Source: Schmidtea nova
Lineage: Eukaryota
DNA length: 51,809 bases
Assembly: GCA_044892505.1 (NCBI GenBank)
Contig: CM097882.1
Span: 202,442,192 to 202,494,000, forward strand
Direction: 5' to 3'
This document shows, one piece after another, positions 14,185 to 49,420 of the stretch. The position numbers and the translations under genes were made by a program. The notes beneath the pieces were generated by a model that made no database searches, was not told where the DNA came from, and saw nothing but the letters and a program-made list of their open reading frames with translations. How positions within the stretch are numbered: position 1 is the stretch's first letter; each line of letters starts with the position of its first letter.

Positions 14185-14826
14185 ATGAAGCGAGAACCGA
14201 CCACCAAATCCATATTGAAATAAACATCCACTAGCGATAAAAATCGGAATACGCTAAGAAAGAACCAGGAGAGAACCACGCGGAGATCGCGAGCTAGTGC
14301 CTCGAGGATAAGGCTCCAAGGAATCGCAGATGTCCCCACGTCAATTATTCAACAGGCGCGTAGACACCTTCGTCTATGGATCCGACGATACATCAACGTC
14401 GCCGCCAAGGTGCCATCCGGTTCCTTTCCAATACAACTCCGGTGGGAAGGAGAGTCGAAGTGGCCAATAGCCGCGAATCGATCGCACAAGACGTCCCCAA
14501 ATTGGTTCCTCCAGATGACCAACGATGCGGGTCAACCCCGATGGATTTTATGTGATGCCACGATAACAGGTCCAGAATTCTTCAAGCTTGGTTACCTACT
14601 CATGGATAGGCCTCGGTGTAGCGACACTGGAGAAATCCAACCCTACCGACATGCACCCGGAAGTATGACATCGGAACAGAACCCGAAACCGGACGAGCTC
14701 AGGCTATGGGAGGTATTCACCTACCAGGACAAACTCGTTTGGGATCCATGCCCTGAACTCTATTTACCAGGTGGCAGAAGGCGAGCGGATCGACGTCTCG
14801 ACCAAGAGATTCGACCCTTCTTCTGA
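14185..14826 (+). pseudogene. LTR-encoded ORF L1, solo-LTR copy (one in-frame TAA at 14221)
   Basis: ATG 14185 is in frame with the tracked ORF 14410-14826. Homologous to 26727-27362 (ARRHLR.W, LQLRWEG, LGYLL.DRPRC, ELRLWEVF.Y.DKL.W). Acceptor TTATTCAG 4 nt upstream. Confidence 0.8.
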
Positions 14827-15052
14827 GAAGGAGTGATTGTAACTACGATCCGATGTAGATGAAATTAACAATAAAATTATTCATTGGTTCTTCTTGTTAT
14901 GACTTGACTGTATGTGAATGACTGAGTATGAAGGAATGATGTGAGAAAGTTCAGGATGGGTAGTGTGTAGTAATCTAAATTTCCGAAGGGTGAAGGGAAG
15001 TACGAATTCATAGTCGAATCATAATTCGAATTACTAATATAATTTATTAGAA

Positions 15053-15613
15053 ATGAGCCTCAATAATATTCACAACTACGAAAAGGAAGCCAAGGAGCAT
15101 AGATCGCGGATTAAAGTATTAGAAAGCCGGCTGCATCAGTTAAACGATGAGTACCAGTGGGTAAAAACGACCTGGTTTAACCCGGAGCGGGTAAAGTCCA
15201 TCTTACAAGCCCGATATAGAGCAGAAAGAATCGCCAAGGAACAGACGAGAGAAGGGGCAGCAGTAAAAATAGAGTTGCACAACTACCTGAAAGACTCCAC
15301 TCAGGAGTTTATCACCCAACAATTGCGCCCACTGATCCGGGATAGCACATTCAACCGATGGGTGGATACGGTTGCTACGACGACAAGTACCCAGACGGAA
15401 ATTGAATCCGGTACTACGACAACCACTCCAGAGATCGTATCGCCACCAGAAGGTTCAAAGAGGACCAAGCGCCGAAATCGCCTCGGGGCGAAAAGACGTC
15501 GCGAGCGTAGGGCTTACGCGGAAAGAATTGGTATTCAGGTAGATTTGCTGAGTGGTTTAACGAAAAGGCAACTGTTGGAGGTGATGAATCCCTCAGTGTT
15601 GTTAAATGAATAA
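15053..15613 (+). CDS. LTR-encoded ORF L2, solo-LTR copy (coiled coil, TQT motif, Arg-rich motif)
   Basis: Intact 186-aa homolog of 25972-26535; branch-like TACTAAT and acceptor TTTATTAG 2 nt before ATG; AATAAA at the stop (15612-15617). Confidence 0.8.
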   Translation: MSLNNIHNYEKEAKEHRSRIKVLESRLHQLNDEYQWVKTTWFNPERVKSILQARYRAERIAKEQTREGAAVKIELHNYLKDSTQEFITQQLRPLIRDSTFNRWVDTVATTTSTQTEIESGTTTTTPEIVSPPEGSKRTKRRNRLGAKRRRERRAYAERIGIQVDLLSGLTKRQLLEVMNPSVLLNE

Positions 15614-15785
15614 TAAATGTTTATTAGTCAGCTGAATTGATTTGATTGTCTGTGGAATGATTGTGCAAACAACGGAAAAATAAATCAAACCGATTCATTT
15701 TATACTACAGGTACCCCGAAATTGAGTTTACCCTAGAATAAATAAGGGAGCGCACGAAAGAGGGACCGAAAGAAATCCACATAAA

Positions 15786-15959
15786 CCTTCTATCGGTAGT
15801 GGTGGACCCGTGAATAAACAAGGGAATAGTACCCGCAAGGTTGCTCACCTGCCTTGTCATTTCACAACGTTGACACAGTACCAACATGATGATTAGTTAT
15901 GGATACATCATGGGTGTCAGCGGGGAGATGTTTTTTATGTTGGCGAGATCACCCTAACG
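15786..15959 (+). ncRNA. Putative structured U5 cis-element (GNRA-capped hairpin plus long hairpin), solo-LTR copy
   Basis: 174 nt with only about 7-8 differences from the reverse complement of 25636-25809, while neighbouring ORFs differ at about half of the silent sites checked. Confidence 0.55.
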
Positions 15960-15998
15960 AATAAAGTCCAAAATAATCTCAGTTGAATAACCAACCAG

Positions 15999-19468: not shown

Positions 19469-19973
19469 TTCGGCATCTGGCCATTTGGCATCTGGCCATT
19501 CGGCATCTGGCCATTCGGCATCTGGCCATTCGGCATCTGGCCATTTGGCATCTGGCCATTCGGCATCTTGCCATTTGGCATCTGGCCATTCGGCATCTGG
19601 CCATTCGGCATCTGGCCATTCGGCATCTGACCATTCGGCATCTGGCCATTCGGCATCTGGCCATTCGGCATCTGGCCATTCGGCATCTGGCCATTCGGCA
19701 TCTGGCCATTCGGCATCTGGCCATTCGGCATCTGGCCATTCGGCATCTGGCCATTCGGCATCTGGCCATTCGGCATCTGGCCATTCGGCATCTGGCCATT
19801 CGGCATCTGGCCATTCGGCATCTGGCCATTCGGCATCTGGCCATTCGGCATCTGGCCATTCGGCATCTGGCCATTCGGCATCTGGCCATTCGGCATCTGG
19901 CCATTCGGCATCTGGCCATTCGGCATCTGACTATTTGTCATCTGGCCATTCTATATCTGGCCATTTGGCATCT
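19469..19973. repeat. 15-bp minisatellite (CGGCATCTGGCCATT)n, ~33-34 copies
   Basis: Directly visible tandem array with few variants (TTGG, CTGA, CTTG). Confidence 0.95.
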
Positions 19974-23870: not shown

Positions 23871-25635
23871 TCTAAAACGACTGAATTACTTTACAATGAA
23901 TGGATTATAAATCAGAATAAATTAAATAAATCAATTAATTTAATGGATACCAATTTGACTATTTTATTTTAGAGATCCGTAAATCAATAGTCAGCATAAT
24001 AGTCAGTAAGAATTATCAGCTTTTTACTCACAAAAAGTCTAAAATAACATTTACTAATTTAGATGACAGTAGACTTCGGATAGGTAACAATGAGAACCTG
24101 GCTAATGTCAATTATAGCGTTATTGATATGATTATAAAGGTGCGTGATAATGCTGTTGATGAAGCTGAAGAAGATGTTAACGAAAATGCCGAATATTTTA
24201 GTTATATTAAAATTTATTTTAAAATTTTGTGTTACTTCGAAGATTTTTTTGTTTTTGTCGGAGAAGAGCAGTTTTTGATATAATTTGTTTTTTAGGTGTT
24301 TCTTTTGGTAATTCGATTGTTAACTTTTAACTTTGGGATTATTTTTACATTTTACATCTTTTCTGTACTCGAGTTTTAGAGCATTTTCAAAGTATGTGGC
24401 ATTTCACCCATGACTTTTGAAAAATTAAACGAGTATAGAACACAAATCAAAAGAAGAAAAATAATAATCCGTCAGTTCTTCCGGTATTCTTTGAAAGTTT
24501 GTCTAGGAAAAAGTTTGTATTTAATTTTTATAATTCTAAATGTATAGAGTTTTATATTGTCAAATTAGTATTTCGATTTAATGATGAGGTTTACACTCGT
24601 GCTGATTCCTTTTCTTATTCTATTGTTTATGAATTAATTGATGTGATTGATGGCGATTCTAAGTATTCTGTATTGTTCTTTGCTCTGTTCTCGTTTATAT
24701 TTTCAAACGTCATGGGTAAAGACTGCCTGTCTTCTATCTATTCGAGTTTCAGAACGGAGTCAATTAATGGGATTTAGCGTTGTTTTCAGTCATATCGATG
24801 TTTGTGAATATGTGAGTGTGAGAGTTTTGAGCCCGTGTGTTTGCCTCATTTTTTGCGGTTTAAGTAAATTAACTGATGTGGTTGTTGATGATGTTTATTT
24901 TCTTCTTTTAATTTGTGTTCTATACTCGTTTAATTTTTCAAATGTCATGGGCGTAATGCCACATACTTTGGACAAGACTGACCGTCTTTTCTGTACTCGA
25001 GTTTTAGAACATTTTCAATTGGGGATTATGGATTTCGTTTTCAATCATTCTGTTGTTTATAAATATGGAAATATTTATAATATATTCTTAAAAAATATAT
25101 TTTTTTGTATAAAAATAAAATAATATTATATTTTTAAGATTAATTTATTTAAATTAAAAAATTTTAATCGATTAAAATTTTTTGAATAATATAGAATTTA
25201 AAATTTATATTTTATTTTAAAAATTAATACTAATACGTTTGAATAATCGATTTATATTTGAATGTAAGATTGGGTAGCACCTGATGAAGAGAATTAAGTT
25301 CCCAAAATATATTGTGCAAAATATATATTTGGATTGGCGTTTGTTTTTAATTATTTTAGTGCCATGCTAGTTGTGTTACGTATTAAATATTTTATAGTTA
25401 GAATAAAAAAATAATAATAAAAGAAATTCATTTTGAATAAATATGTCAAAATATAAAGCTAGCGACCAATATTGTAAACAAGTTTAAAACAGTCAGAAAT
25501 ACAATATCATTTTCAAATGCGAATTTAACATTTTAATAAGATTAGGAAATTCGACGAAATTCTAAGAATTAAGAGTTACATTATCTGTGCTGGTGTGTTG
25601 GTTAGATTGACAACTGAGATCCTTATGATTTTATA

Positions 25636-25809
25636 CGTTAGGGTGATCTCGCCAACATAAAAACATTTTCCCCGCTGACACCCATGATGTATCCCTAACT
25701 ACTCATCATGTTGGTGCTGTGTCAACGTTGTGAAATGACAAGGCAGGTGAGCAACCTTTCGGCTACTATTCCCTTGTTTATTCACGGGTCCACCACTACC
25801 GATAGAAGG
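25636..25809 (-). ncRNA. Putative structured U5 cis-element
   Basis: Sense RNA folds by eye into GUGAA/UUCAC - ACAAGG/CCUUGU - GUAGCC-GAAA-GGUUGC and CGUUGACAC/GUGUCAGCG - CAUGAUG/CAUCAUG. Confidence 0.55.
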
Positions 25810-25971
25810 TGTCTGTGGCTTTCTTTCGGTCCCACTTATGCTCTTTACTTTGCTCTAGGGTAATTTACTTTTTTGGATATCTGCAGCTTTAAATGAACCA
25901 GGTTTTCATTACTTTTAATTCTCATACATACTTCAAACAAACAAGACAAATCAAATCATTCATTTATACAT

Positions 25972-26535
25972 TTATTTGTAGTTCAACAATACAGAGGGTC
26001 GGATTACATTTAGTAGTTCTTGCTCAGATAGACCACTGAGCAAGTCTACCTCTATTCCGAGACGATCTGCATATGCGCGTCTTTCCCTGCGCTTTTTCGC
26101 TCCTAAGCGATTCCTCCTCTTTGTGCGTTGTGAGCCTGCGGGAATTGTATTTGTCACTGTAGTAGCCGTGGCTATGGTCGATGCATTCTCTGTTTGGGTG
26201 CTCGTAGTCACCGCTATCGTATCTATCCATCGATTAAAGGGGCTCGCTCTGATCACGGGGCGTAGTTGTTCGGTGATGAAGTCGCGGGTCGATACCTTCA
26301 AATAATTCGCCAACTCCAATTTCAGGGCTGCAATCTCTCTGGCATGTTCCTCAGCTACTCGTTCTGCCCTGTACCTAGCCTGCAGGATGGACTTAACCCG
26401 CTCTGGATTAAACCATGTCGTTTTAACCCGCTGATGCTCCTCATTCAGCTGCCTTAATCGATTCTCCAGCACCCGTGCGCGCGCCTTGTGTTCTCGCGCC
26501 TCTTGCTTGAAGTCTCTGCCCTTGGGTTCCGTCAT
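25972..26535 (-). CDS. LTR-encoded ORF L2, 187 aa: coiled coil, TSTQTE (LC8-type motif), Arg-rich motif, Leu-rich C-terminus
   Basis: Intact; 23-aa block VKTTWFNPERVKSILQARYRAER is identical to the solo copy with 12 synonymous codon differences; AATAAA overlaps the stop (25971-25976). Confidence 0.85.
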   Translation of the reverse strand: MTEPKGRDFKQEAREHKARARVLENRLRQLNEEHQRVKTTWFNPERVKSILQARYRAERVAEEHAREIAALKLELANYLKVSTRDFITEQLRPVIRASPFNRWIDTIAVTTSTQTENASTIATATTVTNTIPAGSQRTKRRNRLGAKKRRERRAYADRLGIEVDLLSGLSEQELLNVIRPSVLLNYK

Positions 26536-26726
26536 GTCTGTAAATATATCATTAATGTTGGTATATGTTATGTGTCTGATTTTTCGGTCATCTTATCGTC
26601 GTTAAACAACTCCGTTCTATCATCATATTATTTCCATGCGCTCGAAAGAAAAACAAAACAAGACCGTTTTCACACAAATACATATATTTTGTAACTACGA
26701 CAATCATTCTCTCTCGGCTGCGACAA

Positions 26727-27362
26727 TCAACTGAAGGCCCTCAAGTCCTGATCGGCAGGATGCTCGTCGCGACGAATTCCATTCTCCTCATACATTTCTG
26801 GGGCTGGGGTCCAACTCAGCTTATCTTTGTAGATAAACACCTCCCAGAGGCGAAGCTCCTTGGGCTCGGGGTGTTGTTCCACGGAAACACTTCCTGGTGC
26901 ATTGGAATAAGTGAAGACTTCCTCAGTGTAGCGACACCGAGGCCTGTCTAGCAGCAGGTATCCTAATTGGAAAAGAGCCCTTCCGGTCATCATTCCATTG
27001 CTCAATACCCAGCGGGGTCGTCTCTGCTCGTCGAGAAATTGGAAGAACCATCTAGCGGTCCTTGGTTCGGCAGGGTCCATGGTGGACATCCAATCGGGGT
27101 CTCCTTCCCATCGTAATTGTAACGTGAAGGCGCAAGCCGGAACATCTGCGGCTGCACTCATATGGTGTCTTGTCCACCGCCGTAGGTGGCGACGCGCAGT
27201 TTCGCTAATTCTGCGTGGGGCTTCCATTTCTCCCTCGATGGTGGGGATCCTCCTTGGCCGGACGACGGGACGGATGCGTCGGGGTTTCCGGACGACATAA
27301 TCTTCCATTTTCATCTGTCGATAGGTGCTCGGACTTCTTTGATATTCTTCGGTCTTTATCAT
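26727..27362 (-). CDS. LTR-encoded ORF L1, 211 aa, basic N-terminus plus unknown globular domain
   Basis: Intact; homolog in the solo LTR; strong acceptor CCTAAC...TCTTCTTGTCTTCAG 4 nt before ATG. Confidence 0.85.
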   Translation of the reverse strand: MIKTEEYQRSPSTYRQMKMEDYVVRKPRRIRPVVRPRRIPTIEGEMEAPRRISETARRHLRRWTRHHMSAAADVPACAFTLQLRWEGDPDWMSTMDPAEPRTARWFFQFLDEQRRPRWVLSNGMMTGRALFQLGYLLLDRPRCRYTEEVFTYSNAPGSVSVEQHPEPKELRLWEVFIYKDKLSWTPAPEMYEENGIRRDEHPADQDLRAFS

Positions 27363-28323
27363 TTTTCTGAAGACAAGAAGATGTGATTGTGATGAATTTG
27401 TTAGGTGCGTGCAATTATTTATAATCGGCGACCTACTCGACTCAAGAGTAAAACTCTGTAGGTTGCCGTTGGTGTTTCAGTGTTAGATCGGTTCGATGTT
27501 CAAGATAGTAGGTAGGTTGTATGTTATCGTCATGTGGTTGAGTGTATTCACTATGTCAAGTTGCTTAACTGATTTGGCCACGCAAAAATTCAGTGCAGTT
27601 TATGACAATCTTTATTCATTTATGATGATCACTTGATCATTTATTATGTTAGAATATCATCATTTCATAGACCATTTGGGTTTATATCTACAGCAATCAT
27701 ACTCACTCGCATCTCAGGTGTTATCTCCATACCTCAGGTTCAACTATCAAGAATCACATCATCCGGGGAACATGATCGACCCCTTATTCAGGTTAATTGG
27801 GTACAGATTGTACTTGCATTACATTTCGTGGGTCTATCCTTCGTACCCTTCGAGAGGTGTACATATATGTTGGGATATCCTGTGGATTCATGGTTTACCT
27901 CTGACCCTAGCCCTGTCGGTCTCTGACTCACCTGACTCATGTAGTGTATATCTCCATACTAACCCTTTGCACAAAACCGTCGTTACTCTACTCGACTTCA
28001 CGACGCTGGACACTCCTGGTCTATTAACAAGCCTTTTATGTATACTGATTTACTCGGTGTCGTCGTGACAGATGATACGTCCTTCAATTGCTTTCACCCA
28101 TACCGATGTTGCGATGGCATGAGATATCCGATGTGCCCTTCCCCCTTCCGCTTGTTAAATATTTAGAACACCTATGGTCCCGCCGCATCAGCACCTCACA
28201 ACCGAAAGATTGTGTTGCGCTGAGAGGCCCCAAGAATCCGTCAGGCTGTTAGGCCTCCGGAAAACCTTATGGATTTTAACATATTTATATAATTATGAGG
28301 GTTTAAAAGACTAATACAACGTG

Positions 28324-28463
28324 AATTACCTTTTATTTCTTTCCAAATTGGTTTCACAATGTTCTCAGTAGTCACAAACAATTCACACTTGGTAAAGATA
28401 ACATTGTCAAATACTGATTTGACTTCAGTATTTATACTCCACCGGTGTTGTTGGTTAGCCAAT
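28324..28463 (-). promoter_or_regulatory. LTR promoter and leader-exon splice donor
   Basis: ATTGG 28459-28463, TATAAATA 28429-28436, TCAGT 28413-28417, donor AAG|GTAATT at 28330/28329; same layout as the solo LTR. Confidence 0.65.
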
Positions 28464-28838
28464 CAGCATCGAGTATGTGTGTATGTTTGCTTCATTATTT
28501 TGTGTTGTCGGCTTTTTGCTGCCTAACTTAACTTGCCGATTTGTTTGGTTAATCATGCGGTAAGTTTTTCTTAGTCATCAATTTATTTTATTTTATTTTT
28601 GTTTATAGGTCTTTGGTGACATCCGCCCACGCGCTGTCATATTCAGATTTTATCTGCTTCGCATGAGTAAGTTTTGAAGATTTTTGTTGTTTTGATTAAT
28701 ATTTTATTTCTTTTAGATGTTGCCGCCTATTTTGTTACGCTTTGGTGTTGGTAATTTATTTTGTTGTTATTCTGTTGTAAATTTATTTTATTGATTGTAT
28801 ATTATTTTCAGATGCTGCTCGATTTGGCTGGCCCAACA

Positions 28839-29038: not shown

Positions 29039-29563
29039 TCAGGTCCTTTCACTGGTTGACTGCATTTCGTATCGGGCTTGAATTTGTCGTAGATGGCTTC
29101 TCATTCTTTGGTGGGTTTTGGCTTCTCTTCTGGCGCATCTACACATTATCGTTTGTTGTTGTTTGAGGCTTCTGATTCGATATAGGGTATACGTGATCAC
29201 TATGATCAAGATGATTGTCAGTATTGTCATTGTGACTATTCCCACGATGATCCATCTGTTTCGGATTTCGGATTCGATTTGGGTTTGACCTTTGATTGGC
29301 TTTAGGTGATCTTGAAATGTTCTATGGATTTCTCGGATCTTCTCGATTTGATTGAATAGGGTTTGTACGGGTTTGCGATGATCATGACTGATCCGCATTT
29401 GTCGGATTAATTGTTTCAAGTCTTCTCTGACTTCGTTTAGTTGTTTTTCGATCTCTTGGGATATCTCGTTTGACAGGGTTCTTTGGATTTCGGTTGTTGA
29501 ACAGTTCATGATTGTTGTAGCTAACATAATCGTTAGGATTGATAGGGTTTTGAGCCAGATCAT
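29039..29563 (-). CDS. 174-aa type I membrane protein (signal peptide, coiled-coil ectodomain, TM, basic tail)
   Basis: MIWLKTLSILTIMLATTIMNC signal-like; TM WIIVGIVTMTILTIILIIVITYTLY; acceptor CAG 2 nt before ATG. Confidence 0.8.
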   Translation of the reverse strand: MIWLKTLSILTIMLATTIMNCSTTEIQRTLSNEISQEIEKQLNEVREDLKQLIRQMRISHDHRKPVQTLFNQIEKIREIHRTFQDHLKPIKGQTQIESEIRNRWIIVGIVTMTILTIILIIVITYTLYRIRSLKQQQTIMCRCARREAKTHQRMRSHLRQIQARYEMQSTSERT

Positions 29564-29636
29564 TTCTGATTATTCTACTGATTAATACCTGTTACATCGA
29601 TTTGTACATTTTTACACACGGATTTTTCGCCTCTTT

Positions 29637-30800
29637 TTACACATCCGTCTCCTCTGGTTCATGAAACCCTTCATCTTGGAGTTCCATTGGTGGTGGTGGT
29701 ATAAACGGTAACCACACCACTCTGCTTCTCCACATTGCAATTTCATCTTGATACGTTCGAGAGATTTGTATCTCTTCATCTAACAGATACTCCATGTAAT
29801 CTGATTGTTCGCTTAGAGTTTCAATTTGTCTTTCCATCTCTTCCACTTTTCTCTTCAGGGCTTCTACTTCTGTAGGTTCGGTTTCTACTTCTATGGTTTC
29901 TTTCAGGGTTATTATTTGTTGTTTCAGCTCCTCGTTTTCTTTCGTCAAGTTCGTTATGTTTTCCTCGTAAGCTCGGTTTGATTCCGCATGTCTTTCTTTC
30001 ACAGCTTTCAGTTCCATTTTCTTTTGGGTCACCACCCCTTGATAACCATTTACATCTCTTTCCAAGCTTTCTTTTTCCCTGTTCAACTTTTGTCTTTCCG
30101 CTTCCTCTTTTTGTCTAATACCTCGCATTTCTCCATTTATCATCTGTACTTGCCATTGCGCTTTCTTTAGTTCCTTTGCCTGCTCTCGAATAAATCGTTG
30201 TCGTTTTCGACTCCATTCTTTGTTTGCTTGTTCTTGTCGTTTTCTCTGTTCTAATTCCTCTTTCAATTCGTCTATCTCTTGATACAGTTTCCAATCTTCG
30301 CTGTGTGCTGTCCTTCTGATTATTTCTTTGGCTTCTTTATACACTCGTTTCGACTCCATCTTCCAATGTCTCGCTTGAGCCTTGATTGCTAGTATTTTTA
30401 CCTCCATCTTTTCCTCTTGTTTCTCCTTCTCTTCTCTTCGCGTTTTCATCATATTTTTATAATGTTCTGCTTGTTTCCTCATCAACTGATAGGTCTCTTC
30501 TATCTTCTGTCGACTTCGTGCATTCGTTCCTTTTAGCTTCTCTATTTGTGTTGTCAGTTGTACTATCTCTTTGTTTACTTCCTCGAGTTCTAGTTGATAT
30601 AACTCCATTCGTCGTTCGCATTCCAGTTTCTCGTAGAAATTGTTTGTCATCACTTCGTGTAACTCTCTGGTTCTTTGTTCCACTTCCATTTTACATCTCT
30701 TTTCGATTTCTCTTTCGATTTCTCTTTCTATTGTTTCTTGTTCGTTCAACATCTCGCTTCTCGTTTCATCTTCGATTACATGTTCATTTGCGTTTTCCAT
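29637..30800 (-). CDS. 387-aa long coiled-coil protein with C-terminal PPPP and acidic tail
   Basis: Intact E/K/Q/R-rich heptad sequence; acceptor TTACAG 1 nt before ATG. Confidence 0.8.
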   Translation of the reverse strand: MENANEHVIEDETRSEMLNEQETIEREIEREIEKRCKMEVEQRTRELHEVMTNNFYEKLECERRMELYQLELEEVNKEIVQLTTQIEKLKGTNARSRQKIEETYQLMRKQAEHYKNMMKTRREEKEKQEEKMEVKILAIKAQARHWKMESKRVYKEAKEIIRRTAHSEDWKLYQEIDELKEELEQRKRQEQANKEWSRKRQRFIREQAKELKKAQWQVQMINGEMRGIRQKEEAERQKLNREKESLERDVNGYQGVVTQKKMELKAVKERHAESNRAYEENITNLTKENEELKQQIITLKETIEVETEPTEVEALKRKVEEMERQIETLSEQSDYMEYLLDEEIQISRTYQDEIAMWRSRVVWLPFIPPPPMELQDEGFHEPEETDV

Positions 30801-30889
30801 TCTGTAATTTACAAATTTACACTTGTTATACTATACGTTTATTGTTGCTGTCGATTTTTACACTTTATTTACAGGGTCGTTCATTCTGA

Positions 30890-32302
30890 CTACTCCAACC
30901 ATCCTTTCGTTGACTTCGTGTTCATCACTGTTGTACTTGCTTTCTTTTCGATTTCCAATTCTACGTATAGGTTGTCGTCGTACAACATTTCCCACATTGT
31001 TTGGTGTGGTATGAATTTTGGTTCTCCAGTCGCTAATGAACATTCTGTGGTTGGTCTTTTGTAAGCTTCGTGCTTACCATCAATTTTGAATACTCTCGCT
31101 ATTGTTTCTTTCGAGTTTTTCACTCTCATTATAGCCTTTGTTTCTAGTGGCCATTCCAATATGTCGTCGTAACCACCTTTACACAACGCAAAGAATAATG
31201 ACACATGCGTTTCCTTTCCTGATCCATCTCCATTTGGATAAATTCTCATCCGGACTTTGTATTCATTTTTCCACAGATAGAATGGTGGACTTGTTACCGA
31301 CACTTGACTTCCTGTTTTTGCTGCTGTGAATTTGTCATTGAAGTTCTTGATTTTCCATACATATGGTGCAACAGGTAAACTCTCGATATCCTCTGCATCT
31401 CGCACCCATATTTGATGTCGCACGTTTACTTCTTTTACTAGCGTCTCTATGACTTTGATTTTCTCCATCATTTTCTCTCTGGTGAGCTCGAATTGCTCTC
31501 TCGTTTCCAGTAATAACTCTGTCATGATCCTCTGAGATTCAATTTCTTTTCCTAGTTTCTGTATGGTTTGTTCCATTCCGTTCAAATTTTCTGTTAACAT
31601 CTCTGCGTGTTGTACCGTCTCGGTTTCCAAATGTTCTTTCATTTCTTTGCTCGTTTTCTTTACTACACATCCTTGTTTGCTCCATACGCACTTTCTTGGC
31701 CTTGCTTCACATCGTTCCCAATGTTCTTTCAACATCACCTCTTCTCTGGCTCCACAATTACTTGGACACATTCCTCTGAATTTTCCGCACACTTTCTCTT
31801 CTGCTACATTGAGATGTTCTGTTTCAATTATCTCTCTTGTCTCCCTTTGTTCACAGTATTGACATTCTATTATTTCTGCTTTGCACTCGTTCTTGTGACT
31901 TTTCAACTGCTTGATGGTTATCGTCTGTTGACACTTTTCACATGTTGCTTTCTTGTTTTCGCATTTCTCCAGATGTTGTCTGAGTTCGATTATTTGACCT
32001 TTCCACTCACATGGTTGGTTTATACATTCTGTTTTTATCTTCCAGATCTCCTTTTGGATTGCTTTGTCTGGTTTCGTCTCGTTGATTAGTAGTTTATCGT
32101 CACACTCTGGACACTTTCTTGTCTCACTTTCACTGATTATTTGCAATATACACTTGGTGCACATCCTGCATCCACATTCCGTTTGCCTCGGTTTTAACAG
32201 TAGATTTTTACACTTTACACACGTCACATTTACTCCCCATTGTCGATTTTCTCTTCTTAGCATCTCGATCGTTTGGTAATCTGCTTCACTTTCTGCTCTC
32301 AT
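30890..32302 (-). CDS. TRAF-family protein, 470 aa (RING, TRAF zinc fingers, coiled coil, MATH)
   Basis: RING CVKC...CGCRMCTKC...CPEC; zinc fingers CINQPCEW...HLEKC; MATH VWKIKNF...SPPFY...RIYPNGDGSGKETHVSLFFALCKGGYDDILEWP...PKFI; intronless. Confidence 0.95.
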   Translation of the reverse strand: MRAESEADYQTIEMLRRENRQWGVNVTCVKCKNLLLKPRQTECGCRMCTKCILQIISESETRKCPECDDKLLINETKPDKAIQKEIWKIKTECINQPCEWKGQIIELRQHLEKCENKKATCEKCQQTITIKQLKSHKNECKAEIIECQYCEQRETREIIETEHLNVAEEKVCGKFRGMCPSNCGAREEVMLKEHWERCEARPRKCVWSKQGCVVKKTSKEMKEHLETETVQHAEMLTENLNGMEQTIQKLGKEIESQRIMTELLLETREQFELTREKMMEKIKVIETLVKEVNVRHQIWVRDAEDIESLPVAPYVWKIKNFNDKFTAAKTGSQVSVTSPPFYLWKNEYKVRMRIYPNGDGSGKETHVSLFFALCKGGYDDILEWPLETKAIMRVKNSKETIARVFKIDGKHEAYKRPTTECSLATGEPKFIPHQTMWEMLYDDNLYVELEIEKKASTTVMNTKSTKGWLE

Positions 32303-32392
32303 TCTACAACAATATTTACATCAATTTCCCCATATTTTTGATTTTTTCTGGTTCTTTATTTACACGTATTTACACAATTTTCCGCTTATTCA

Positions 32393-32743
32393 CTATACAT
32401 CCTCAGTTGAATCCGCCTCTGGATACACGTCTATTTCATTTACAATCCAGCTCGTCCAACTATCTGGTATCTCTTCCTCTTCATGTCTCGTTAATCGGTC
32501 AATTTCCTCTGCTTGCCAGTTGTTCACTTCATTCAATGTTCGGTTCTCGTTCTGTAATTCGTTTATCTGTATTTGTTGGATCTCGATTTTGTTCATTGCT
32601 TCGAAATTACAGTTATAACTCTCGGTTAATAATTGCGTTTTTGCCGTCAACTGGCTCTGTAATTCATTTACTGTTCTGGCTAGCAGGTCGCATTGTACTT
32701 TCCATCTCGTCATCATTGACATCTCGATATTTTCTTGGTTCAT
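32393..32743 (-). CDS. 116-aa coiled-coil acidic protein
   Basis: Intact, same strand and spacing as neighbours; acceptor TAG 7 nt before ATG. Confidence 0.7.
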   Translation of the reverse strand: MNQENIEMSMMTRWKVQCDLLARTVNELQSQLTAKTQLLTESYNCNFEAMNKIEIQQIQINELQNENRTLNEVNNWQAEEIDRLTRHEEEEIPDSWTSWIVNEIDVYPEADSTEDV

Positions 32744-32866
32744 CGTTTTTCTAGATTATATACATCATTCTCTTTTTTCTGTTTTTATGTTTTATAATAT
32801 TTATACCCATACGTATACGGTTATGCATTGGTTTTTACAATATTATTTACACTCATATTCCACCCT

Positions 32867-35524
32867 CTATACAACTATTACTGGTTTTCCTTCGTACAGT
32901 TCTTCGTCCTCGATCTGTACCCACATCTCTTCGTGTTTTGATCGTCTTCTCAGCTCTTCTCGTACTTCTTTTGGTAGTTTTTTGTTGTAATTCGTGACCT
33001 TTACGTCCGGCCATTTTACTGCTATGGTCTTATTTCTCATGCCATATCTCCAACATACTATCATGATCGTTATCAGCGGTATACACGCTATGAATACTCC
33101 CATGCTGATTAATCCCATTACTGTTTTTCCAATGCTCATTCTTGGAGTCTCACTTTGGTTTATCATCACGCCATATTGACCTTTCCATTCTGCTTCCCAT
33201 TGTTCGTATTGTTGTTGTCTCCGTCTGACTTCTTCGATCACTTTCTCGGGTTCCCATCTTTCTTGTTGATTTTGTAGTATTTCCTCCGTCTCTGTTTGTT
33301 CTCTTTTCTGACTCAATTCTCGGAATTCTAACTTGCGGGTTCCCCCTTTTATCGTTATGTTCCTTGGCGTGTAATAGGTTTCGCACCTTTCTTGTTGATT
33401 TCCTTGTGCGTCTACTTCTTCGATTGCACACACTTCGTATTCTGCGTTTGTTTTCAACCTCCTCATTTCTACCTCGATTATTTCCCTTTTGTCATTTGAT
33501 GTCTTTTGACAGTTTCGTGGAGACTCTCTCATACTGTTTGGCATTAATGTCCAACAGATTTCTAGGACCTTTTTATGGATCTTCCATATTATCAGAGTCG
33601 TTGATTCCGGTTCGTTTTTTATTGACGTCCCTTCTGTTGTCTGTTGAGTTCCTTGACTGTTGGTTGTCGTGGTTCTTCTTGACTTTCTTTTCCTCTGTCG
33701 ACTTCCTCCCATTTCGATCGTTCTTGTACCGTTAATTTGCTCTGGCGTCTTGTACAGTCTGCACTCCAGGCTTCTTTGTATTACTTCTCTTATTCTTCGG
33801 ATTACGCAAATTTCGTAAGCTTGTCCGACTTCGAATCCATTTAGTTGAAACGGGATTCCTCGTTCTCTCGTTTTACATTGCGGTATTATGTTGTTGGTCG
33901 ATACTCCGATGTATTTTCTCCAACACATCCCAATTGTTCTCCGACCAATGTTTTTTATCTCCACCGTTACTACTTCATTCGCAATCGTTTCTTGATCTTG
34001 TTTCTTTCTTTTTGGGAATTCAATTATCTCCTTTGCTTGGAACACTTTACACTCGCTTGTTCCTGGTCTGTTTCCGTTTGCTGCTTTTTCCATGAGACAT
34101 AGTTCACATTTTCTATCTGTCTCCATTTCAGTTATCTCTATTTCCTCATTTGTCTCCGCCTCTACTATTTCTCTTGTTTCGCTGATTCCAATTACCTCAT
34201 TGTTTCGTCCCCAACATCTTCCATTCGTTGTTCGTTGATCTTGGATGTTTACTAACGTCATCACGCTGATATCTATGTCCTCCATGATTCTCTTAATGAG
34301 GATTAATATTAATGCTACACATATCAATTCTGGTTGGAATGTTAATTTGCCCGCTGAATTTCTGGTTATTCTTTCTTTCTCTGTTCGGTTTCTGATTCCT
34401 TCTTCTGCTTCAGATTGATTCTTCCCTTTCTCTGATTCCACTTCTGTTCTTCTCGTTGTCTCTTCGCTTCTTTTTCCAATCCATTTCTGTATTTTCAGCG
34501 CTTCTGTTGCTTTATATAATTGACATGCAGTTACCTGAGGTGCTTTTGGTTCTCCTCTCTGCTTTATTGCGCATATTATGTATGACTTTTCTTTCTCTAA
34601 TCCTTTGATTTGGATGACGTCCCGCTTCAAATCTGACAATATACACTTCAGCGTATCGTTTTTCCTCATATTCTCTTTCCAGCATATTCTTTCGTATACT
34701 TCATTTCTTCTAATTATCTCTAGCGTGACGTATTGTTTCTTGGCTTCTCCTTGTCCGATGATTGTTATCAATATCGCAATACACAACATTTCCGGTCTCA
34801 AAAGTAGACTTCCTGTTCGTTTTCCATAGTTTGTACGTTCGTCTTTTGTTCCATTGTTTTCTCGTTCTTCGGCTTCCCCTTTCTTGTCTTTTTCCGTTGG
34901 CTTTGGTTCTTCTTGTCTTTCTTTTTCATTATCCTCTGTTCTTTTGTTGTCATTGTCTTCGTTGTTCTTTTCGTTGTTACTTTTGTCGTCGAAGTCTCTG
35001 TAACCACCCCCTGGTCCTTTGAAAATGTCGTCCTCGACATTAATTTCTTTAATCAGTCTTTCATACGCTTGAACCGCGAGTGTGCTAGACTCGAATTCAC
35101 GTATTTCCATCTCCTTGGATGGTTCCCTGTCTTCTAGTCTACTTTGCTTGATTGCTCCTTTGGCATTTGTCCATTCATTCACATATTTTCTGAACAAGTC
35201 TTTCCATCTTCCCGTTCGTTCGGGTTCCTTTGGATTGTTCGTGAACTTCAAATCTCTTCTCTTTAAGAATTCTTCTACTATCTCTGGCTTTTTGTGTCTT
35301 AACAACGCGCTTCTGATACACCAATTCTGATTCTGTTCCATATGGTCATTGATCTTGAATGCCGGTTCCTTGGTGATCGGATTCACCCATGTTAGCAATG
35401 CTCTTGTTTTCTCTATGTCGTGTATCATTACTGTCAGACTGAAATTCTTTACGTTATTTGCCAGGTATTCTATGTCCTCTTGTCTCTTGATGGACTTTAT
35501 GAACTTGATCATCTCGAAATTGTT
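32867..35524 (-). CDS. Polyprotein C-terminal segment: end of ankyrin repeats, acidic linker, signal-like segments, ~4 FN3-like repeats, TM, short tail
   Basis: In frame with 35525-43984 across one TAG (IDIAIQ*NNFEMIKF); repeats such as IKGLEKEKSYIICA, LNGFEVGQAYEICV, LKTNAEYEVCA; TM GLISMGVFIACIPLITIMIVCW. Confidence 0.75.
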   Translation of the reverse strand, partial: NNFEMIKFIKSIKRQEDIEYLANNVKNFSLTVMIHDIEKTRALLTWVNPITKEPAFKINDHMEQNQNWCIRSALLRHKKPEIVEEFLKRRDLKFTNNPKEPERTGRWKDLFRKYVNEWTNAKGAIKQSRLEDREPSKEMEIREFESSTLAVQAYERLIKEINVEDDIFKGPGGGYRDFDDKSNNEKNNEDNDNKRTEDNEKERQEEPKPTEKDKKGEAEERENNGTKDERTNYGKRTGSLLLRPEMLCIAILITIIGQGEAKKQYVTLEIIRRNEVYERICWKENMRKNDTLKCILSDLKRDVIQIKGLEKEKSYIICAIKQRGEPKAPQVTACQLYKATEALKIQKWIGKRSEETTRRTEVESEKGKNQSEAEEGIRNRTEKERITRNSAGKLTFQPELICVALILILIKRIMEDIDISVMTLVNIQDQRTTNGRCWGRNNEVIGISETREIVEAETNEEIEITEMETDRKCELCLMEKAANGNRPGTSECKVFQAKEIIEFPKRKKQDQETIANEVVTVEIKNIGRRTIGMCWRKYIGVSTNNIIPQCKTRERGIPFQLNGFEVGQAYEICVIRRIREVIQRSLECRLYKTPEQINGTRTIEMGGSRQRKRKSRRTTTTNSQGTQQTTEGTSIKNEPESTTLIIWKIHKKVLEICWTLMPNSMRESPRNCQKTSNDKREIIEVEMRRLKTNAEYEVCAIEEVDAQGNQQERCETYYTPRNITIKGGTRKLEFRELSQKREQTETEEILQNQQERWEPEKVIEEVRRRQQQYEQWEAEWKGQYGVMINQSETPRMSIGKTVMGLISMGVFIACIPLITIMIVCWRYGMRNKTIAVKWPDVKVTNYNKKLPKEVREELRRRSKHEEMWVQIEDEELYEGKPVIVV

Positions 35525-36790
35525 CTACTGTATTGCGATATCTATGATGGAATTATTCTTTCCATTTTTCCCTTCGATTTTTGCTCCTGCTTCGTATAAT
35601 TCGCTTAGCACTTTAAAGTTCGTCTTCTTTCTTGCTGCGATTATCATGATTGTATCTCCGTTATCATCAACCGTATTCATGTCCGCTTCGCATTTGACCA
35701 TTGCTTTCGTTATTTCTAGCACTTCGTTTTCTTTCTTTCGACGTAATGCCCAGTGTATCGGCAATCTCCCATCCTTTGATAATAGGAATGCCACTGGCAT
35801 TTGATTCTTGATTGTGTCCATATCACTCTCGTTATAATCTCCTTGTGCGTATCTGTGCACTTTCTCTGTAATCGCTCCTAGTATCTCTAGCGAGTTTTTA
35901 TTCTCTTTGAATTCCGATAATTTTTCCTGCGCTTTTACTACGATTGCGTCTAATCTCTCTTGATATTCCGCTTTTGCATTGAACAACACTGCTTTGTTTC
36001 TTATTCGCGTTTGCATCTGTTTCATTCGTTGGTCTTGATATACTGCTTGTCTGAAGAATTGTCCATACTTCAATGCTTCCATCAGCTCTTTATATCGCTT
36101 GCTTATTTCTTTGTGCTGCTTTTGGATGTCATAGAAATGTTCGAAGCTCATATCCGGATTCCATTGCTTATCACACCATTTCTTGATTAATCCGAATAAT
36201 TCTTTCTTTCTGTCTTCCAGCTTGTATTCTCTTGGGTTCTCACTAACCCGTAGCGTATCTCTCGCTATCAACACTGCAAGTGTTTTTGGATCGTATGTTA
36301 CTTCTAATAGATGTTTCAGTAACGCATTTTCTCCCCTTATGAACACTTCATTACAATCTATGACCCACGAATCTCCTTCTGGTCGTTTCCACTTTAGCAA
36401 TATTCTCCAGGTTTTACTATTTCTTACTCCGATTGCTTGTTTCATGATCGATCCTCTAGTTAGTTCATCGATTTCCCACGTGGCATTTTCCGTGATATAC
36501 TTCAGTATTCGGTGATTCGCTCTATCAATTGCATGATTCAAGAATGTTCGTCCCTCTTTATCTTTTGTCAACCAATTCGATCTGGTGTTTCCGAATAGCT
36601 TGATTATTTCATCTTTTCTTCCATGAATCGTCATCATCATAAGTGGAGTAATTCCTTCCCAATTCACTTTGTCAATTTCTCCTCCACCTTCGAGTATCAT
36701 CCCTACAATTTCCTTCACTTTTTCGTTTCCACTGTGCTTGATTGCATTGTGCAACGCGGTATTACCGTCTTTGTCTTGTAGATTCAATGT
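35450..36790 (-). CDS. Ankyrin-repeat region fused downstream of integrase
   Basis: QDKDGNTALHNA, NWEGITPLMM, KDKEGRTFLNHA, KDGRLPIHWA, DDNGDTIMIIAA, GKNNSIIDIA. Domain edges approximate. Confidence 0.9.
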
Positions 36791-37149
36791 CTGAGGGATC
36801 TCCTCTAGCAGCGTCCTTGTTATTGGATGTGCTGTTCTGTCTTTTGCATACTCCATTACATTCTTTCGAACTTCTGACAGTATATTGAAATCGTGCCACC
36901 ACCTCCATTCCGGTATAATTTCTCTGGTTTTCCTTGCCAGTTCTTTGATGTCTATTATCTCCCTTCGGTTGTCCTCTAGACTTGTTTGCGGCTTTTGTTG
37001 TACTCGCAACATACTGATTCTCGCCGTCTGTGATCTTGTCATTACCCGTTTCTCTGGTGATAGAGTTGCTGTCTTTGGTATTTTCCTGCATCGACATGCA
37101 TTCACGTATATTGGTCTTACCAATGGATTGTTCACCAATCGTACTCGCA

Positions 37150-40100
37150 CATTATTTTCGTTTACTGTTGTGATTTCATATGGCCCTTTGCCTGGTCGTT
37201 GGAGTTTTTTGACCGTACCGGGTATTATCTCTGGTGTTTCGATTATCACCCAATCTCCAACTTTTAAATCATGTGCTTTCACATTCTTTTTCTGATCATG
37301 CAGATCCTTGTAACTCTCTTGATAGAACTTGATGTTCAGTTCCGCCGTTTTCCAGATTTCTTGCATTCTTTCTTTGAACTTTGTAACGTAATCGTCAACC
37401 TCCATGTACTGTGATAATGGTGGTTGGTATTCTAAATCGATCGGTAAGTTGCAATCTCTTCCGTACATCAGTTGGAATGGACTTAGCTTTGTTGCCGCAT
37501 GTATTGACATTCTGTATGCCATTAAACACAAGTTTATATACTCGTCCCAGTCAGTCTGGTGTTTGCTGACGTAATTCGACAACATGCGTATTAATGTTCC
37601 ATTGAATCTTTCTGTTTGACCGTTCGTTTGTGGATGGTATGGGGATGTTCGTAATTTCGCAATTCGGAAGTAATTCGTAACTTCGTCTAATATTTCACTC
37701 ATGAAATTTGTTCCTTGATCCGTTAGGATTTTCTTTGGTGTTCCGTATCTGCAGCATATCTCTTCCACCAATATTCTCGCGACTGTTTTTGCCTTTTGAT
37801 CCGGTATTGCGTATGCTTCTGGGAACTTTGTTAGATAGTCCGTGACTACTAATATATACTGATTCCCCTTTAAACTTTCCGGCAATGGTCCAACTACATC
37901 CATTGCTATCGTCGCCATAGGTTCTGCAGGTATTGGCATTGGTTTTAGTGGTGTTTTCCACTTCGTTCCGACGTTCTTTCTTGTCGCACAGGTTAAGCAG
38001 TTCTTTATCCATTCTTTCACATCATCTTCCATGGTTGGCCAAAAATACTTTTGTCTCAATCTCCCGATTGTCTTTTTTGCTGACATATGTCCGCCTAATT
38101 TTCCGTCATGATATTGAGTCATGATTTCCTTTCGTCTGTTCGCAGGTAAGCACATTAATCTCCGTTCTCCATCTTGTATCAATAACCATCCTTTCTCCAC
38201 CACATATCTATGTTGATATTTCTGCATATGTTCGCGCAACGTTTGGTTCTTGCCGAATATTTCCATTTCCCTTTCTTTCAGATACTTGCTGATCATTCCC
38301 AACTCCTCATCTTCGAGTTGATCTTTCCTTAGTTCGCTGAAATCCAAATCTTCCGCTATTAATGCACATATTTTTAGAGCATTCAGGTTCACCAATTCTG
38401 GAAATGTAAACCTTGACATGCAATCCGCATTTGCATTTGCTTTTCCTGCTTTAAACTTTATGAATGGCGAGTATTCCTGCAACTGCATCGCCCAACGCAT
38501 CAATCTACTTGATGATTCTTTATGTTGACCTAACCATACCAATGGTTGATGATCCGTCGTGATATATATTTCATGACCCCACAATAAGTACTTGAAATGC
38601 TTGATTGCCAATATTATCGCATAGGCTTCTCTTTCCGTGACTGAGTAATTCTTTTCGTGCTTCCTGAACGTTCGACTGTAATATCCAATTACTCTTTCCT
38701 TGCCTTCTTCGTCAAATTGGCCTAGTACTGCTCCTGCTGCATATCCACTTGCGTCTGTTGCCAACAGAAATGGCTTCTTAAAGTCTGGATGGACCAATAT
38801 TGGTGCTGTAATCAGCTTATCTCGTAATGTTTCAAATGCTGCTTGCTGTTCTGGTCCCCATACAAACGACACGTCTTGTCTTACTAATTCTTGCATTGGC
38901 TTTGATATTCCGGCATAGTCCTTGATAAACTTTCGATAATATCCACACAATCCCAAAAATTCTTGTATTTGAGTCACTGTCTTTGGTGGTGGACATTCTT
39001 TAACTTTCTCGATATTCCTTGGATCTGGTTCTTTTCCTTTTGCCGATACAATGTGACCTAAGAATGTCACTTTTTCTTTTGCCCAATCGCACTTTGACGG
39101 CTTTAATTTCAGTTTCCATTGCCTTAATTTCACGAACACATTTCTGATGTCTTGCAAGTGATCCTCGAATGTTGCAGAGTAGATCAATAGATCGTCGATG
39201 TACACCATGCATTGTTTTATGCCATGTGTTACGAAATTCATGCATCTCTGGCATGATGCTGGCGCGTTTGTTAACCCAAACGGCATTTTCTTGAATTGGT
39301 ACAGATCTCGTCCGATTGTAAATGCTGTCTTCTCTTTATCCTCGTCTTTCATTTTGATCTGCCAATATCCACTTTTTAAATCCAGTGACGTGAAATAAGC
39401 TGCTCCTTGTAACGTCAATAACATTTCGTTTATGTCTGGCAGTGGGTACGTATCTCTTTTCGTAACTGCGTTCAATCGTCTGTAATCGATACAGAATCTC
39501 TGAGTTCCATCCTTCTTTTTCACCATCACCACTGGGAATTGCCAGGGTGAGCAACTAGGTTCGATGACCTCTGCATCTAACATCTTTTGTACCTCTTCTT
39601 CTGCCACTGCTTTTTGCGCTTCTGCCAATTTATATGGTCGTAATGCGATTGGCGTTTCGTCCGTCAACGGTATCGTATGTAATGTTACATCGCATGTTCC
39701 TAAATCCAGATCCGATGCTGCGAATATATCTTTATACTCCATCAACAGTTTCTGTAGCCGTTCTTTTTGTCGTTCGTCTAACAACACACTGTCGATTTTC
39801 CATGGTAATTCGCCTTTGCCTTTCTCATTCTTGTCTGGTATCTCGATTTCGGACATGGGTGTTAATTTACCCAAATTCTCATTCTCGTATATTATCTTGT
39901 CCTCTTCGTCGAAGTTTACCAGATTAATCGGTATTTCTCCTTCTTGGTTTATCGTGACCAATTCTCTTGCCATTGGTAATTCTTTCTTTGCTTCGAACTT
40001 CTTACTGGGTTCGAATATCATATCTCCTTTTATTGTCGAATCGATCTTTACATAACACATCATTTCATGTCTCGCTGGCACTACTATTTGTTCCGCACTT

Positions 40101-40480
40101 GCCACTTTAACTTTCATCCTGCAGATTTTTCCTGTCCTATCTTTTAACTTCATTGCTCCTAGATCAATTATGATTTCCTTGAACAGGTCTGGCATCAGGT
40201 CAGTTCCAATAATACATGGTACACTCAGCGATGGTATTACAGCGATGTACGTGTTGATCTCTGCACCTCGATGCTTAATTTTTACAAACCATCTTCCGGC
40301 TACTTCTACTGTCTCTTGACTGCACGCGATTACATGTACGTTCGTCTTCTCGATTTCTCCTTGATTTTTCTCTGGTATATAGTTGATGTCGATTGCCGAA
40401 ATATTCGCGCCTGTATCGATCATTGCTTCAATTTCTCTGCCATTTATTTCTACGGTTGTTGTTAAGATCGGTCCCATATT
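37150..40480 (-). CDS. pol: Pol domains: aspartyl protease, RT, RNase H, integrase (within ORF 35525-43984)
   Basis: PR AMIDTGAN (~40415); RT RFCIDYRRLN, LDLKSGYWQ, MPFGLTNAP, VYIDD (39191-39205); RH ATDASG...TDHQPL; IN HHCC finger, MDVVGP / TDQGTNF / NGQTERFN, GPY motif. Domain edges approximate. Confidence 0.97.
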
Positions 40481-40699
40481 TGTGGACATAACCGCTATCG
40501 TGTGCGTGTCTTCTAACGAGTTTACACTTCCACCTCGTTTTACTTTGCATCCTTCGGGAATTATCGGGTATATACTTGTCATCGGCATCATCTGCATCAT
40601 ATTCGGCTTCGCTTTGTATATTGGTTCGTTATACATTGACTGAGGTGGAGCGCTGTATCTCCAATTCTCAACTGCACTCTTTTCGTTATACTGTGGAAT

Positions 40700-42850: not shown

Positions 42851-42964
42851 GTTCAAATTCAACGTCGATCTTCCGTTTCCTTGCATCGTTTGTCTATTCT
42901 CCATTTCTCTCAATACTCCTTCAAGTTTCTTTCTCATCACGTTTGACCCTTCTTTTGTCTGGTT

Positions 42965-43360
42965 CTCTTTTATGAACTTTTCCCATCCTCCTTTTCTGAG
43001 GATATACGGTTCAATTTCTTTCTCGATAATCATCGCCGTATTTTTAATATGTCTTCCCATCGGGCTTGACTTCGGACTTTCTCGGCTTAGCGTTAACAAA
43101 TTGTATATCGTATACGAGATTGCTACTAGATATTTGCTGTCCGTTTCTGCTCCGTTTAGTAGCCTTTTTACCAACGTCGTGGTTCCTTGCCAATCTAGAT
43201 GATTCGATTTTGTTTTCGCCTTGATCAGTTCTGGCATAATCGGTGCTATCGCGTTGTGTAGCATCCTTGCCTTCGTACCGGGTTCGTTTATCCGCCACAG
43301 ATTCTTTAATTCTGGGTCAATTATCGCTAACACATCCATTATCGTTTTGGTGAGCCATTC
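42965..43360 (-). CDS. Divergent Bcl-2-like domain (within polyprotein)
   Basis: BH2-like IEPYILRKGGWEKFIKE (compare Bcl-xL LEPWIQENGGWDTFVE); BH1-position helix LVKRLLNGAETDSKYLVAISY lacks NWGR. Confidence 0.6.
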
Positions 43361-49102: not shown

Positions 49103-49420
49103 CCTTCACTTACTCACTTTACTTTGCTACTCCTCCTTGTATGCATACTTTAACATCATTAGGCCACATAATCAGCTTTACTCGCATTTATCAATACCCA
49201 GGTGCGCACCTTCAACTCTCTCGTTATTAATTCGGTTTCTTTCAACCCTTATTCCTCATTATTCATTTTCACTATTCATCATTTATCCTCATTATCAATT
49301 ATTCGTCTCTATTATCGCTTATTGATCTTCACTATCCGGATAGTTTTATGCTTTATTTAGTCCTCATCTGCCTCACTTCGTCGTCTTTCTCGTGGGCTTT
49401 TACTCAATATTTTATTTCGA

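Follow-up and report, generated by a model that had tools for sequence, protein, structure and literature searches.

Complex retroviruses are the textbook setting for proteins that regulate the fate of RNA in trans, and the literature searched showed none for Ty3/gypsy elements. The closest described counterparts of the element analysed here are Burro and GYPSM1, giant gypsy-like elements of planarians (PMC6431247; articles cited by PMC number are drawn on in excerpt), with which it shares a size of 25-30 kb, a Gag, a mononegavirus-type fusion protein in frame before protease, reverse transcriptase, RNase H and integrase (PR-RT-RH-IN), ankyrin, TRAF and IAP-type RING domains, and accessory open reading frames (ORFs). 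Section 7 of that article gives no gene inside the long terminal repeat (LTR), as the primary Burro paper may; the literature we searched, outside which the primary paper and its supplements fall, yielded no description of Burro LTR genes. The LTR of the present element holds two ORFs, L1 and L2, the second of which is our subject.

In several respects L2 resembles HIV-1 Rev, HTLV-1 Rex and MMTV Rem: it is the small, probably spliced product of a gene that places a basic motif ahead of a Leu-rich end, and a structured RNA in or near the LTR (where the RexRE lies) would be confined to unspliced RNA (PMC12789967). It differs in having no sequence, profile or fold match to these proteins, in nuclear export signal (NES) patterns that are not conserved across families, in carrying an 80-residue coiled coil and an LC8 site, and in the place of its gene, which does not extend beyond the LTR and follows the promoter. 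Coding sequence within an LTR is also seen in MMTV sag and HIV nef, and foamy virus LTRs share the placing of a splice donor ahead of the poly(A) signal; sag and nef, however, lie in U3, upstream of the promoter, whereas L1 and L2 lie downstream of it, a position from which a solo LTR could express both.

The right half of the window (the whole 51,809-nucleotide stretch analysed) is occupied on its minus strand by a giant Ty3/gypsy element. We call it Burro-like on the basis of size, domain order, the position of env between gag and pol, and tandem repeats, all compared with section 7 of PMC6431247. Its parts, and those of a second LTR in the window, are as follows.

28839 to 51725, minus strand: internal region, with a RING ORF, Gag, Monjiviricetes-type fusion protein, PR, RT, RNase H, IN, ankyrin, TRAF and other ORFs
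25588 to 28838, minus strand: 3' LTR of 3,251 bp, TG...CA, holding L1 and L2
51726 to 51809, minus strand: end of the 5' LTR, which runs beyond the window in locus L081, where its L2 is identical
51702 to 51719, minus strand: primer-binding site (PBS), with 2,969 exact matches in the host genome (reversed control, 0)
28413 to 28463, minus strand: LTR promoter (reverse CCAAT, TATA, initiator-like TCAGT), present in 19/20 family-A and 8/8 family-B LTRs
28325 to 28331, minus strand: splice-donor-like AG|GTAAT, about 100 nt past the TATA box, in all 19 family-A and all 8 family-B LTRs with a promoter match
26727 to 27362, minus strand: L1 ORF, the second LTR gene, no Pfam match
15053 to 15613, plus strand: family-B L2, 66% identical to L2, in the solo LTR at 12920-15995

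The fusion protein stands in frame upstream of protease, RT, RNase H and integrase, which are followed by ankyrin repeats and then by TRAF and other ORFs. The two LTRs differ by one mismatch across 3,251 bp (with the 5' LTR completed in L081), and a 4-bp target duplication, TCTG, flanks the element. The PBS is presumably of tRNA-Pro type. By LTR homology the solo LTR belongs to a sister family, B. The promoter lies 1.3-2.0 kb upstream of L2 in A and B LTRs and was matched in five D/E stretches and in one of three F stretches; the pattern found no match in C or G LTR stretches, and no clear splice donor was seen in D/E stretches. The TATA box sits within a short inverted repeat (28425-28445, minus strand; also L296, L297 and L299), whose arms vary by family and are imperfect in A. 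Both window LTRs carry GCGTGGGCG in U3 (about 28620-28635, minus strand; 13125-13140, plus strand), as do 12 of 20 family-A LTR stretches; we take this to be an EGR-type site.

The features of the L2 gene and its product are these.

25972 to 26535, minus strand: L2 ORF, open, 187 aa, inside the 3' LTR, downstream of TATA and splice donor
26536 to 26560, minus strand: splice-acceptor-like AG 2 nt upstream of the L2 ATG (AG 0-3 nt before the start in 80/81 loci)
25971 to 25976, minus strand: AATAAA that overlaps the stop codon of L2 and precedes a GU-rich tract (79/81 loci)
26263 to 26511, minus strand: residues 9-91, a likely coiled coil of long helices kinked at W-F-x-P (AlphaFold; W41, F42 and P44 invariant in 13/13 proteins)
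26188 to 26211, minus strand: residues 109-116, LC8-type motif VTTSTQTE (TQT in 56/58 intact copies; equivalents in four distant families)
26077 to 26127, minus strand: residues 137-153, basic helix round an invariant Gly, an NLS-type, candidate nucleic-acid-binding segment (G145, R149 and R150 invariant in 13/13)
25984 to 26061, minus strand: residues 159-184, amphipathic tail comprising the end of the basic helix and a short helix (AlphaFold helices 143-167 and 171-178)

L2 is a real, selected accessory gene of the LTR. The translation holds TSTQTE, RTKRRNRLGAKKRRERR and LGIEVDLLSGL, and the motifs that the first-pass annotation had reported for both copies are indeed in both, the 66%-identical family-B copy having TSTQTE, a K-to-R variant of the basic motif and IGIQVDLLSGL as its Leu-rich end. 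In each host-genome protein search the 150 best of about 9,000 candidates were scored, and a stop codon occurs in 6 of the 150 family-A matches. From 81 loci (30 top A, 30 top B, 20 chosen lower A and the 5' LTR), which were picked by protein similarity and are hence enriched for intact copies, we obtained 72 distinct coding sequences, 58 of them intact; TQT is retained in 68/72, the exact basic motif in 59/72 and the Leu motif in 68/72. The ratio dN/dS is 0.09 within family A and 0.06 within family B (between A and B synonymous sites are saturated, with pS 0.92 and pN 0.20), and it approaches neutrality only in the linker at residues 117-133 (0.74 and 0.34), beside which the LC8 site stands at 0.08 and 0.19. 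L2 is thus under strong purifying selection. Its mRNA is probably spliced, with the AATAAA used as poly(A) site, as judged from the signals; only some of the families show a clear donor and a clear AATAAA at the stop. In contigs of X1-X4 no joint of donor and acceptor was found, a result that weighs neither for nor against splicing. The protein is likely a nucleic-acid-binding dimer of no known family, for which the motifs suggest a likely role as regulator.

AlphaFold predicts helices at residues 9-40 and 44-91 (pLDDT 84-96 by block), which agrees with the N-terminal coiled coil proposed earlier and suggests that L2 likely forms a coiled-coil dimer. Rabies P and Ebola VP35 are viral LC8 clients with TQT motifs. 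The likeness of L2 to these viral proteins, and to LC8 clients such as Panoramix (PMC7861614, PMC6607443), lies in a TQT-type motif at the border of a coiled coil and a disordered linker; the difference is that they have no homology to L2. VTTSTQTE agrees with the preference for a polar residue at -4 and an acidic one at +2, with a Thr at -3 that is less ideal than Lys or Arg (PMC6607443). TQT alone arises in 6% of shuffles of the Thr-rich L2 and [ST]TQT[DE] in 0.1%; TQT is absent from eight other ORFs of the element (6,380 aa), and the motif is kept within a variable region of the protein. In all six families tested an LC8-type tetrapeptide (TQTE, CGTE, IGTD, VSTD or TNTD, with swapped anchors G, S and N) lies 11-12 residues past the invariant W103, the flanks being unrelated in C-F, and linker shuffles put the chance of one at such a spacing at 0.0015-0.014 per family, for a pattern drawn after the sites were known. 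Of 31 distinct family-F rows, 26 have TNT[DE], and two of the other five were read on the wrong strand. N, S and G are observed LC8 anchors (PMC12057147), and N-anchored sites of KANK1 bind (PMC12803091). The conservation and the swapped anchors in distant families make the LC8-type motif better founded at the level of sequence than a first reading could have known. Residues 97-114, taking in half of the site, are modelled as helical, with pLDDT below 50 from 114 on, and this counts against binding because LC8 binds extended chains. On balance we think it quite probable that LC8 binds the motif beside the coiled coil as a dimer clamp, not necessarily as a link to dynein, LC8 acting mostly as a dynein-independent dimerisation hub (PMC7861614). 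The literature search on LC8 together with retrotransposons or Gag showed nothing relevant. About 20 intronless, near-identical LC8 genes stand in clusters on C2 of the host genome, between 5 and 45 Mb (L082-L093).

The basic segment contains eight Arg and three Lys in residues 137-153, so that an Arg-rich motif is present, and K[KR]x[KR] NLS-type words occur in 12 of the 13 L2-type proteins. The resemblance to Rev that had been proposed finds no specific support. The fit of this segment to the Rev motif is one of composition, with 955 of 3000 shuffles fitting as well (67-715 of 2000 across nine proteins); Pfam REV matched 3 of 40 L2 copies, all at E>=1.8, no Rev or Rex chain was among the PDB matches, and the NES patterns are not shared across families. 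Lambda N and P22 N, tried with motifs from PMC6023938, were rejected likewise (an equal or better fit in 111-984 of 2000 shuffles). Against 10 host bZIP basic regions (11 were found, one being dropped for a missing anchor), L2 scored 34.7, within the hosts' leave-one-out range of 28.8-47.0 and with 0 of 3000 shuffles as good; of the single host 15-mers, 9/10 gave at most 18 of 1500 shuffles as good. This order-specific fit holds in A, B and F (equalled by 0 of 2000 shuffles in A, in B and in either F protein), is weak in E (12) and fails in C (127), D (187) and G. The invariant bZIP register is N-x7-R/K (PMC4676100); L2 has N-x7-R (N142, R150) in A, B and 23 of 27 F rows, the Asn being replaced by H or K in C, D and E. 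Pfam bZIP_1 matched 11 of 40 copies (best E 0.008), with 14.4 bits for whole L2 and 18.7 for the tail alone, against a curated cut-off of 27.6 that is not reached. Both PDB matches of the tail are Fos/FosB, as are 4/8 of those of the cross-family tail profile, at sub-significant values (PDB E 0.9-8, hhalign probability 8.6%). L2 thus resembles a Fos-type bZIP in the register of A, B and F and in a continuous basic helix leading into one Leu heptad, and differs in the missing Asn of C-E, a Gly within the helix, a hinge one residue short (the Leu repeat of a bZIP begins after exactly nine residues, and L159 lies 9, not 10, residues past the Arg, one early versus nine host rows, so that alignments need a gap) and the want of a full zipper, the Leu heptads making about two turns and ending by residue 167-170. 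The short hinge and incomplete zipper thus indicate that L2 does not belong among the bZIP proteins, from one of which its tail may nevertheless derive. No conserved AP-1/CRE/CEBP site was found in 28 A/B LTR stretches.

The Leu-rich end had been read as an NES. Of the 58 intact A/B copies, 57-58 do carry strict NES patterns (1c-R, 1c and 1d), yet some strict pattern also turns up in 93% of L2 shuffles and in 30 of 31 equally long windows taken from other proteins of the element; none is found in the 6/6 tails of families C-E, and family F has a different one. The class spacings used here were checked against PMC6488578, which counts 3,763 of 4,226 pattern matches as false and describes 1c-R as rare. 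With patterns at chance level and absent from every C-E protein, the NES reading finds no support, and the models suggest that the conserved feature of the L2 end is an amphipathic helix.

Four further families, C-F, are 21-27% identical to L2 in the same LTR position and keep the coiled coil, an LC8-type site in the same place and the basic helix; W41, F42, P44, coiled-coil positions, W103, T115, G145, R149 and R150 are invariant in 13/13 L2-type proteins. In a similarity-free sample of 90 elements, taken from the first 100 of the 2,969 PBS matches, 12 have L2 homologues (families A, C, D, E and F), 9 an analogous ORF (family G) and 69 no L2-type match. The family-G ORF was rejected as a homologue: the layout is the same, but only the basic segment aligns (hhalign 13%) and there is no LC8 site. 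The commonest PBS-sharing family (L167, L174, L200, L135) supplies 70/90 LTR ends, a minority of its copies having the analogous ORF, with coiled coil, Trp kink, basic helix and IDLT-type end and without LC8 site; IDL(T/N) words, which we take to be SUMO-interacting-like motifs, occur in F and G only. Three family-A LTRs of about 1.57 kb (L178, L202, L209) keep the U3/promoter and the last 330 nt, with about 520 unrelated nucleotides in place of L1 and L2, and probably belong to non-autonomous elements. Family C (L163/L164, L275-L294) is very young: 47 of the best 150 scored matches share the top score with L2 100% identical, mostly in pairs about 25 kb apart.

Outside the host genome no homologue of L2 was found among near-length candidates (0/287 and 0/3,790), in a profile search with alignment A1 over 1.84 billion representatives, or in metagenome contigs. 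The PDB gave no significant match by sequence, Foldseek none at E<=0.001 against PDB and viral structures, and a VIA structure search only generic coiled coils (Z<=6). As evidence of novelty this is weak because the searched libraries are poor in animal transposon proteins. A search with the fusion domain led to smaller gypsy families, and 20 stretches extending past the element ends gave no L2 match other than a G-type ORF (L135).

Both RNA structures to which the first-pass annotation had pointed as possible targets fold and covary.

25610 to 25837, minus strand: structured RNA, conserved and lying past L2 in what is probably U5; a candidate cis-element (16/24 pairs change on both sides)
48636 to 49112, minus strand: six repeated leader hairpins, second candidate RNA target (z -2.9; 4/10 pairs change on both sides, 6 copies)

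For the U5 RNA the count of changed pairs comes from 15 sequences of families A-F, with 2-5 for slid partners, and from the same alignment as the structure itself; A and B alone show covariation in 1/52 pairs, so that the signal needs the distant families. Behind L2 the sequence hardly varies among 40 A/B copies and is recognisable in G, and its whole-region folding z is weak (-0.68 and -1.83). The core motif lies within 330 nt of the PBS in 90/90 sampled elements, 69 of these having no L2-type match, and the three short family-A LTRs retain U5 RNA and promoter. Rfam gave no match above the gathering score in the LTR or leader. A GNRA-type loop varies (GAAA/GCAA/GCGA), and pairing between an AGGG loop and a CCCT further downstream would form a putative pseudoknot. 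Since the donor and the AATAAA of L2 both precede it, the structure would be present only in unspliced or read-through RNA, a position that has the topology of a response element and would equally suit a packaging or priming signal. Its conservation is no proof of an L2 target, because structure is expected there anyway for priming, packaging or integration.

The reading that we favour, tentatively and at somewhat less than even confidence, is that L2 is an LC8-clamped coiled-coil dimer that acts in trans on the structured RNA of the element and favours full-length transcripts. Splicing would join a short LTR leader to the acceptor ahead of L2, and the mRNA would end at the AATAAA of the L2 stop, so that any LTR (5', 3' or solo) could make L2 early. 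Host LC8 would clamp the coiled-coil dimer via the motif alongside, the basic helix would carry L2 into the nucleus, the two basic helices of the dimer would bind the structured RNA, and this binding would stabilise, read through or export unspliced or read-through RNA in trans, the outcome being full-length over spliced or prematurely ended transcripts. The circuit logic would be Rev/Rex-like without L2 being Rev, and probably without a classical CRM1 signal. With such a layout the element would face three outcomes, an end in the 5' LTR, splicing or full-length RNA, and L2 would be well placed to set the choice among them.

Of the original proposal of a Rev/Rex-type regulator, then, the selected and probably spliced gene, the LC8-type motif and the basic helix have support, and the likeness to Rev and the NES have none. 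Its premise, that a heavily spliced element needs unspliced RNA, is borne out by the donor and poly(A) layout, which creates a need for unspliced read-through RNA. That need proves nothing, however, because foamy viruses manage without such a protein: their unspliced RNA is exported without one of viral origin (PMC12789967), and their 5' LTR polyadenylation is suppressed through U1 (PMC3694450). The favoured reading gains from the Arg-rich helices of C-E, which lack the bZIP Asn, from the A/B LTRs, which lack a conserved AP-1/CRE site, and from the 69/90 elements that are without L2 yet, like all 90, keep the RNA core. It is weakened because the basic helix fits bZIP regions and not Rev, lambda N or P22 N, because elements without L2 also fit a dispensable accessory, and because the implied R region, at about 2.4 kb, would exceed the 15-250 nt that retroviruses have (PMC12789967). 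A bolder version strikes us as improbable: each LTR would be a two-gene unit whose L2, with a captured Fos-type helix retooled for RNA and dimerised by LC8, licenses full-length RNA via the U5 structure, also for the majority without L2, as an independently evolved counterpart of the early/late switch of complex retroviruses.

The same basic helix might instead grip DNA. L2 would then be a transcription regulator with a tail from a captured Fos-type bZIP, acting on the LTR or on host AP-1-type genes, with coiled coil and LC8 standing in for the lost zipper. The N-x7-R register (N142, R150), the order-specific fit (0/2000 shuffles in A, B and both F, 12 in E), Pfam bZIP_1 in 11/40 copies, the Fos/FosB among the PDB matches and the capture of other host domains by the element (TRAF, RING, ankyrin) all speak for it; yet every Pfam, PDB and hhalign match is below significance, the Asn is H or K in C, D and E (fits of 127, 187 and 12 of 2000), the first Leu comes one residue early with heptads ending after about two turns, and the 28 A/B LTR stretches have no conserved AP-1/CRE/CEBP site, so that we hold it unlikely. 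More doubtful still is the narrower form of the favoured reading that makes L2 a Rev/Rex equivalent proper, its Arg-rich helix sitting on a response element and its Leu-rich NES recruiting CRM1 for the export of unspliced RNA. The order of oligomer, basic motif and Leu-rich end, the strict NES patterns in 57-58/58 intact A/B copies and the RRE-like position of the U5 RNA would suit it, but those patterns are at chance level (93% of shuffles, 30/31 windows) in a class where most matches are false (3,763/4,226) and 1c-R is rare (PMC6488578), the 6/6 C-E tails have none and F a different one, and the Rev-motif fit is compositional; we give it little credence.

L2 might also work in the cytoplasm or in particles, as an adaptor in which LC8 and coiled coil link RNA or capsids to transport or assembly and the basic helix provides a nucleocapsid-like grip on RNA. 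The LC8 motif, the long coiled coil, the fusion glycoprotein of the element and a U5 RNA that could serve as packaging signal are all compatible with this improbable role, against which stand the mostly dynein-independent action of LC8 (PMC7861614), the NLS-type K[KR]x[KR] words in 12/13 proteins and the zinc knuckles that Gag itself carries. Least probable, in our judgement, is an action on the host, such as competition for LC8 or for a silencing complex, with no specific nucleic-acid target in the element. LC8 is required for piRNA-guided silencing in Drosophila (PMC7861614), SMEDWI-2 silences Burro (PMC8532177), and thousands of LTRs could express L2 (about 9,000 first-look candidates per query); a single motif per chain, however, is a poor LC8 sink, the basic helix is conserved as well as the LC8 site, and Panoramix is not known outside insects.

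Whichever account is preferred, the L2 family is encoded downstream of the promoter within thousands of LTRs, with no database relative found, and its LC8 motif persists by anchor swapping, paired with an RNA structure that has no Rfam match. One peptide, one helix and one 230-nt RNA offer handles on the self-control of the largest LTR elements, and if solo LTRs express L2 it would also be an abundant hidden host protein.

Some minor observations concern the body of the element and its surroundings. The polyprotein frame (32867-48124, minus strand) has three in-frame stops in the present copy despite the 1-base LTR difference, and the Gag frame within it has no ATG near its start. Each of the accessory ORFs (RING, 120-aa, TRAF, coiled-coil and membrane; 29039-32755 and 50710-51180, minus strand) begins a few bases past an AG, and AATAAA-like words occur in several of the spacers between them, which may reflect common-leader splicing or trans-splicing. 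Tandem arrays of 19-nt and 36-nt units lie in the element leader (49421-50002), and a 15-nt array of 34 copies lies outside the element at 19469-19973.
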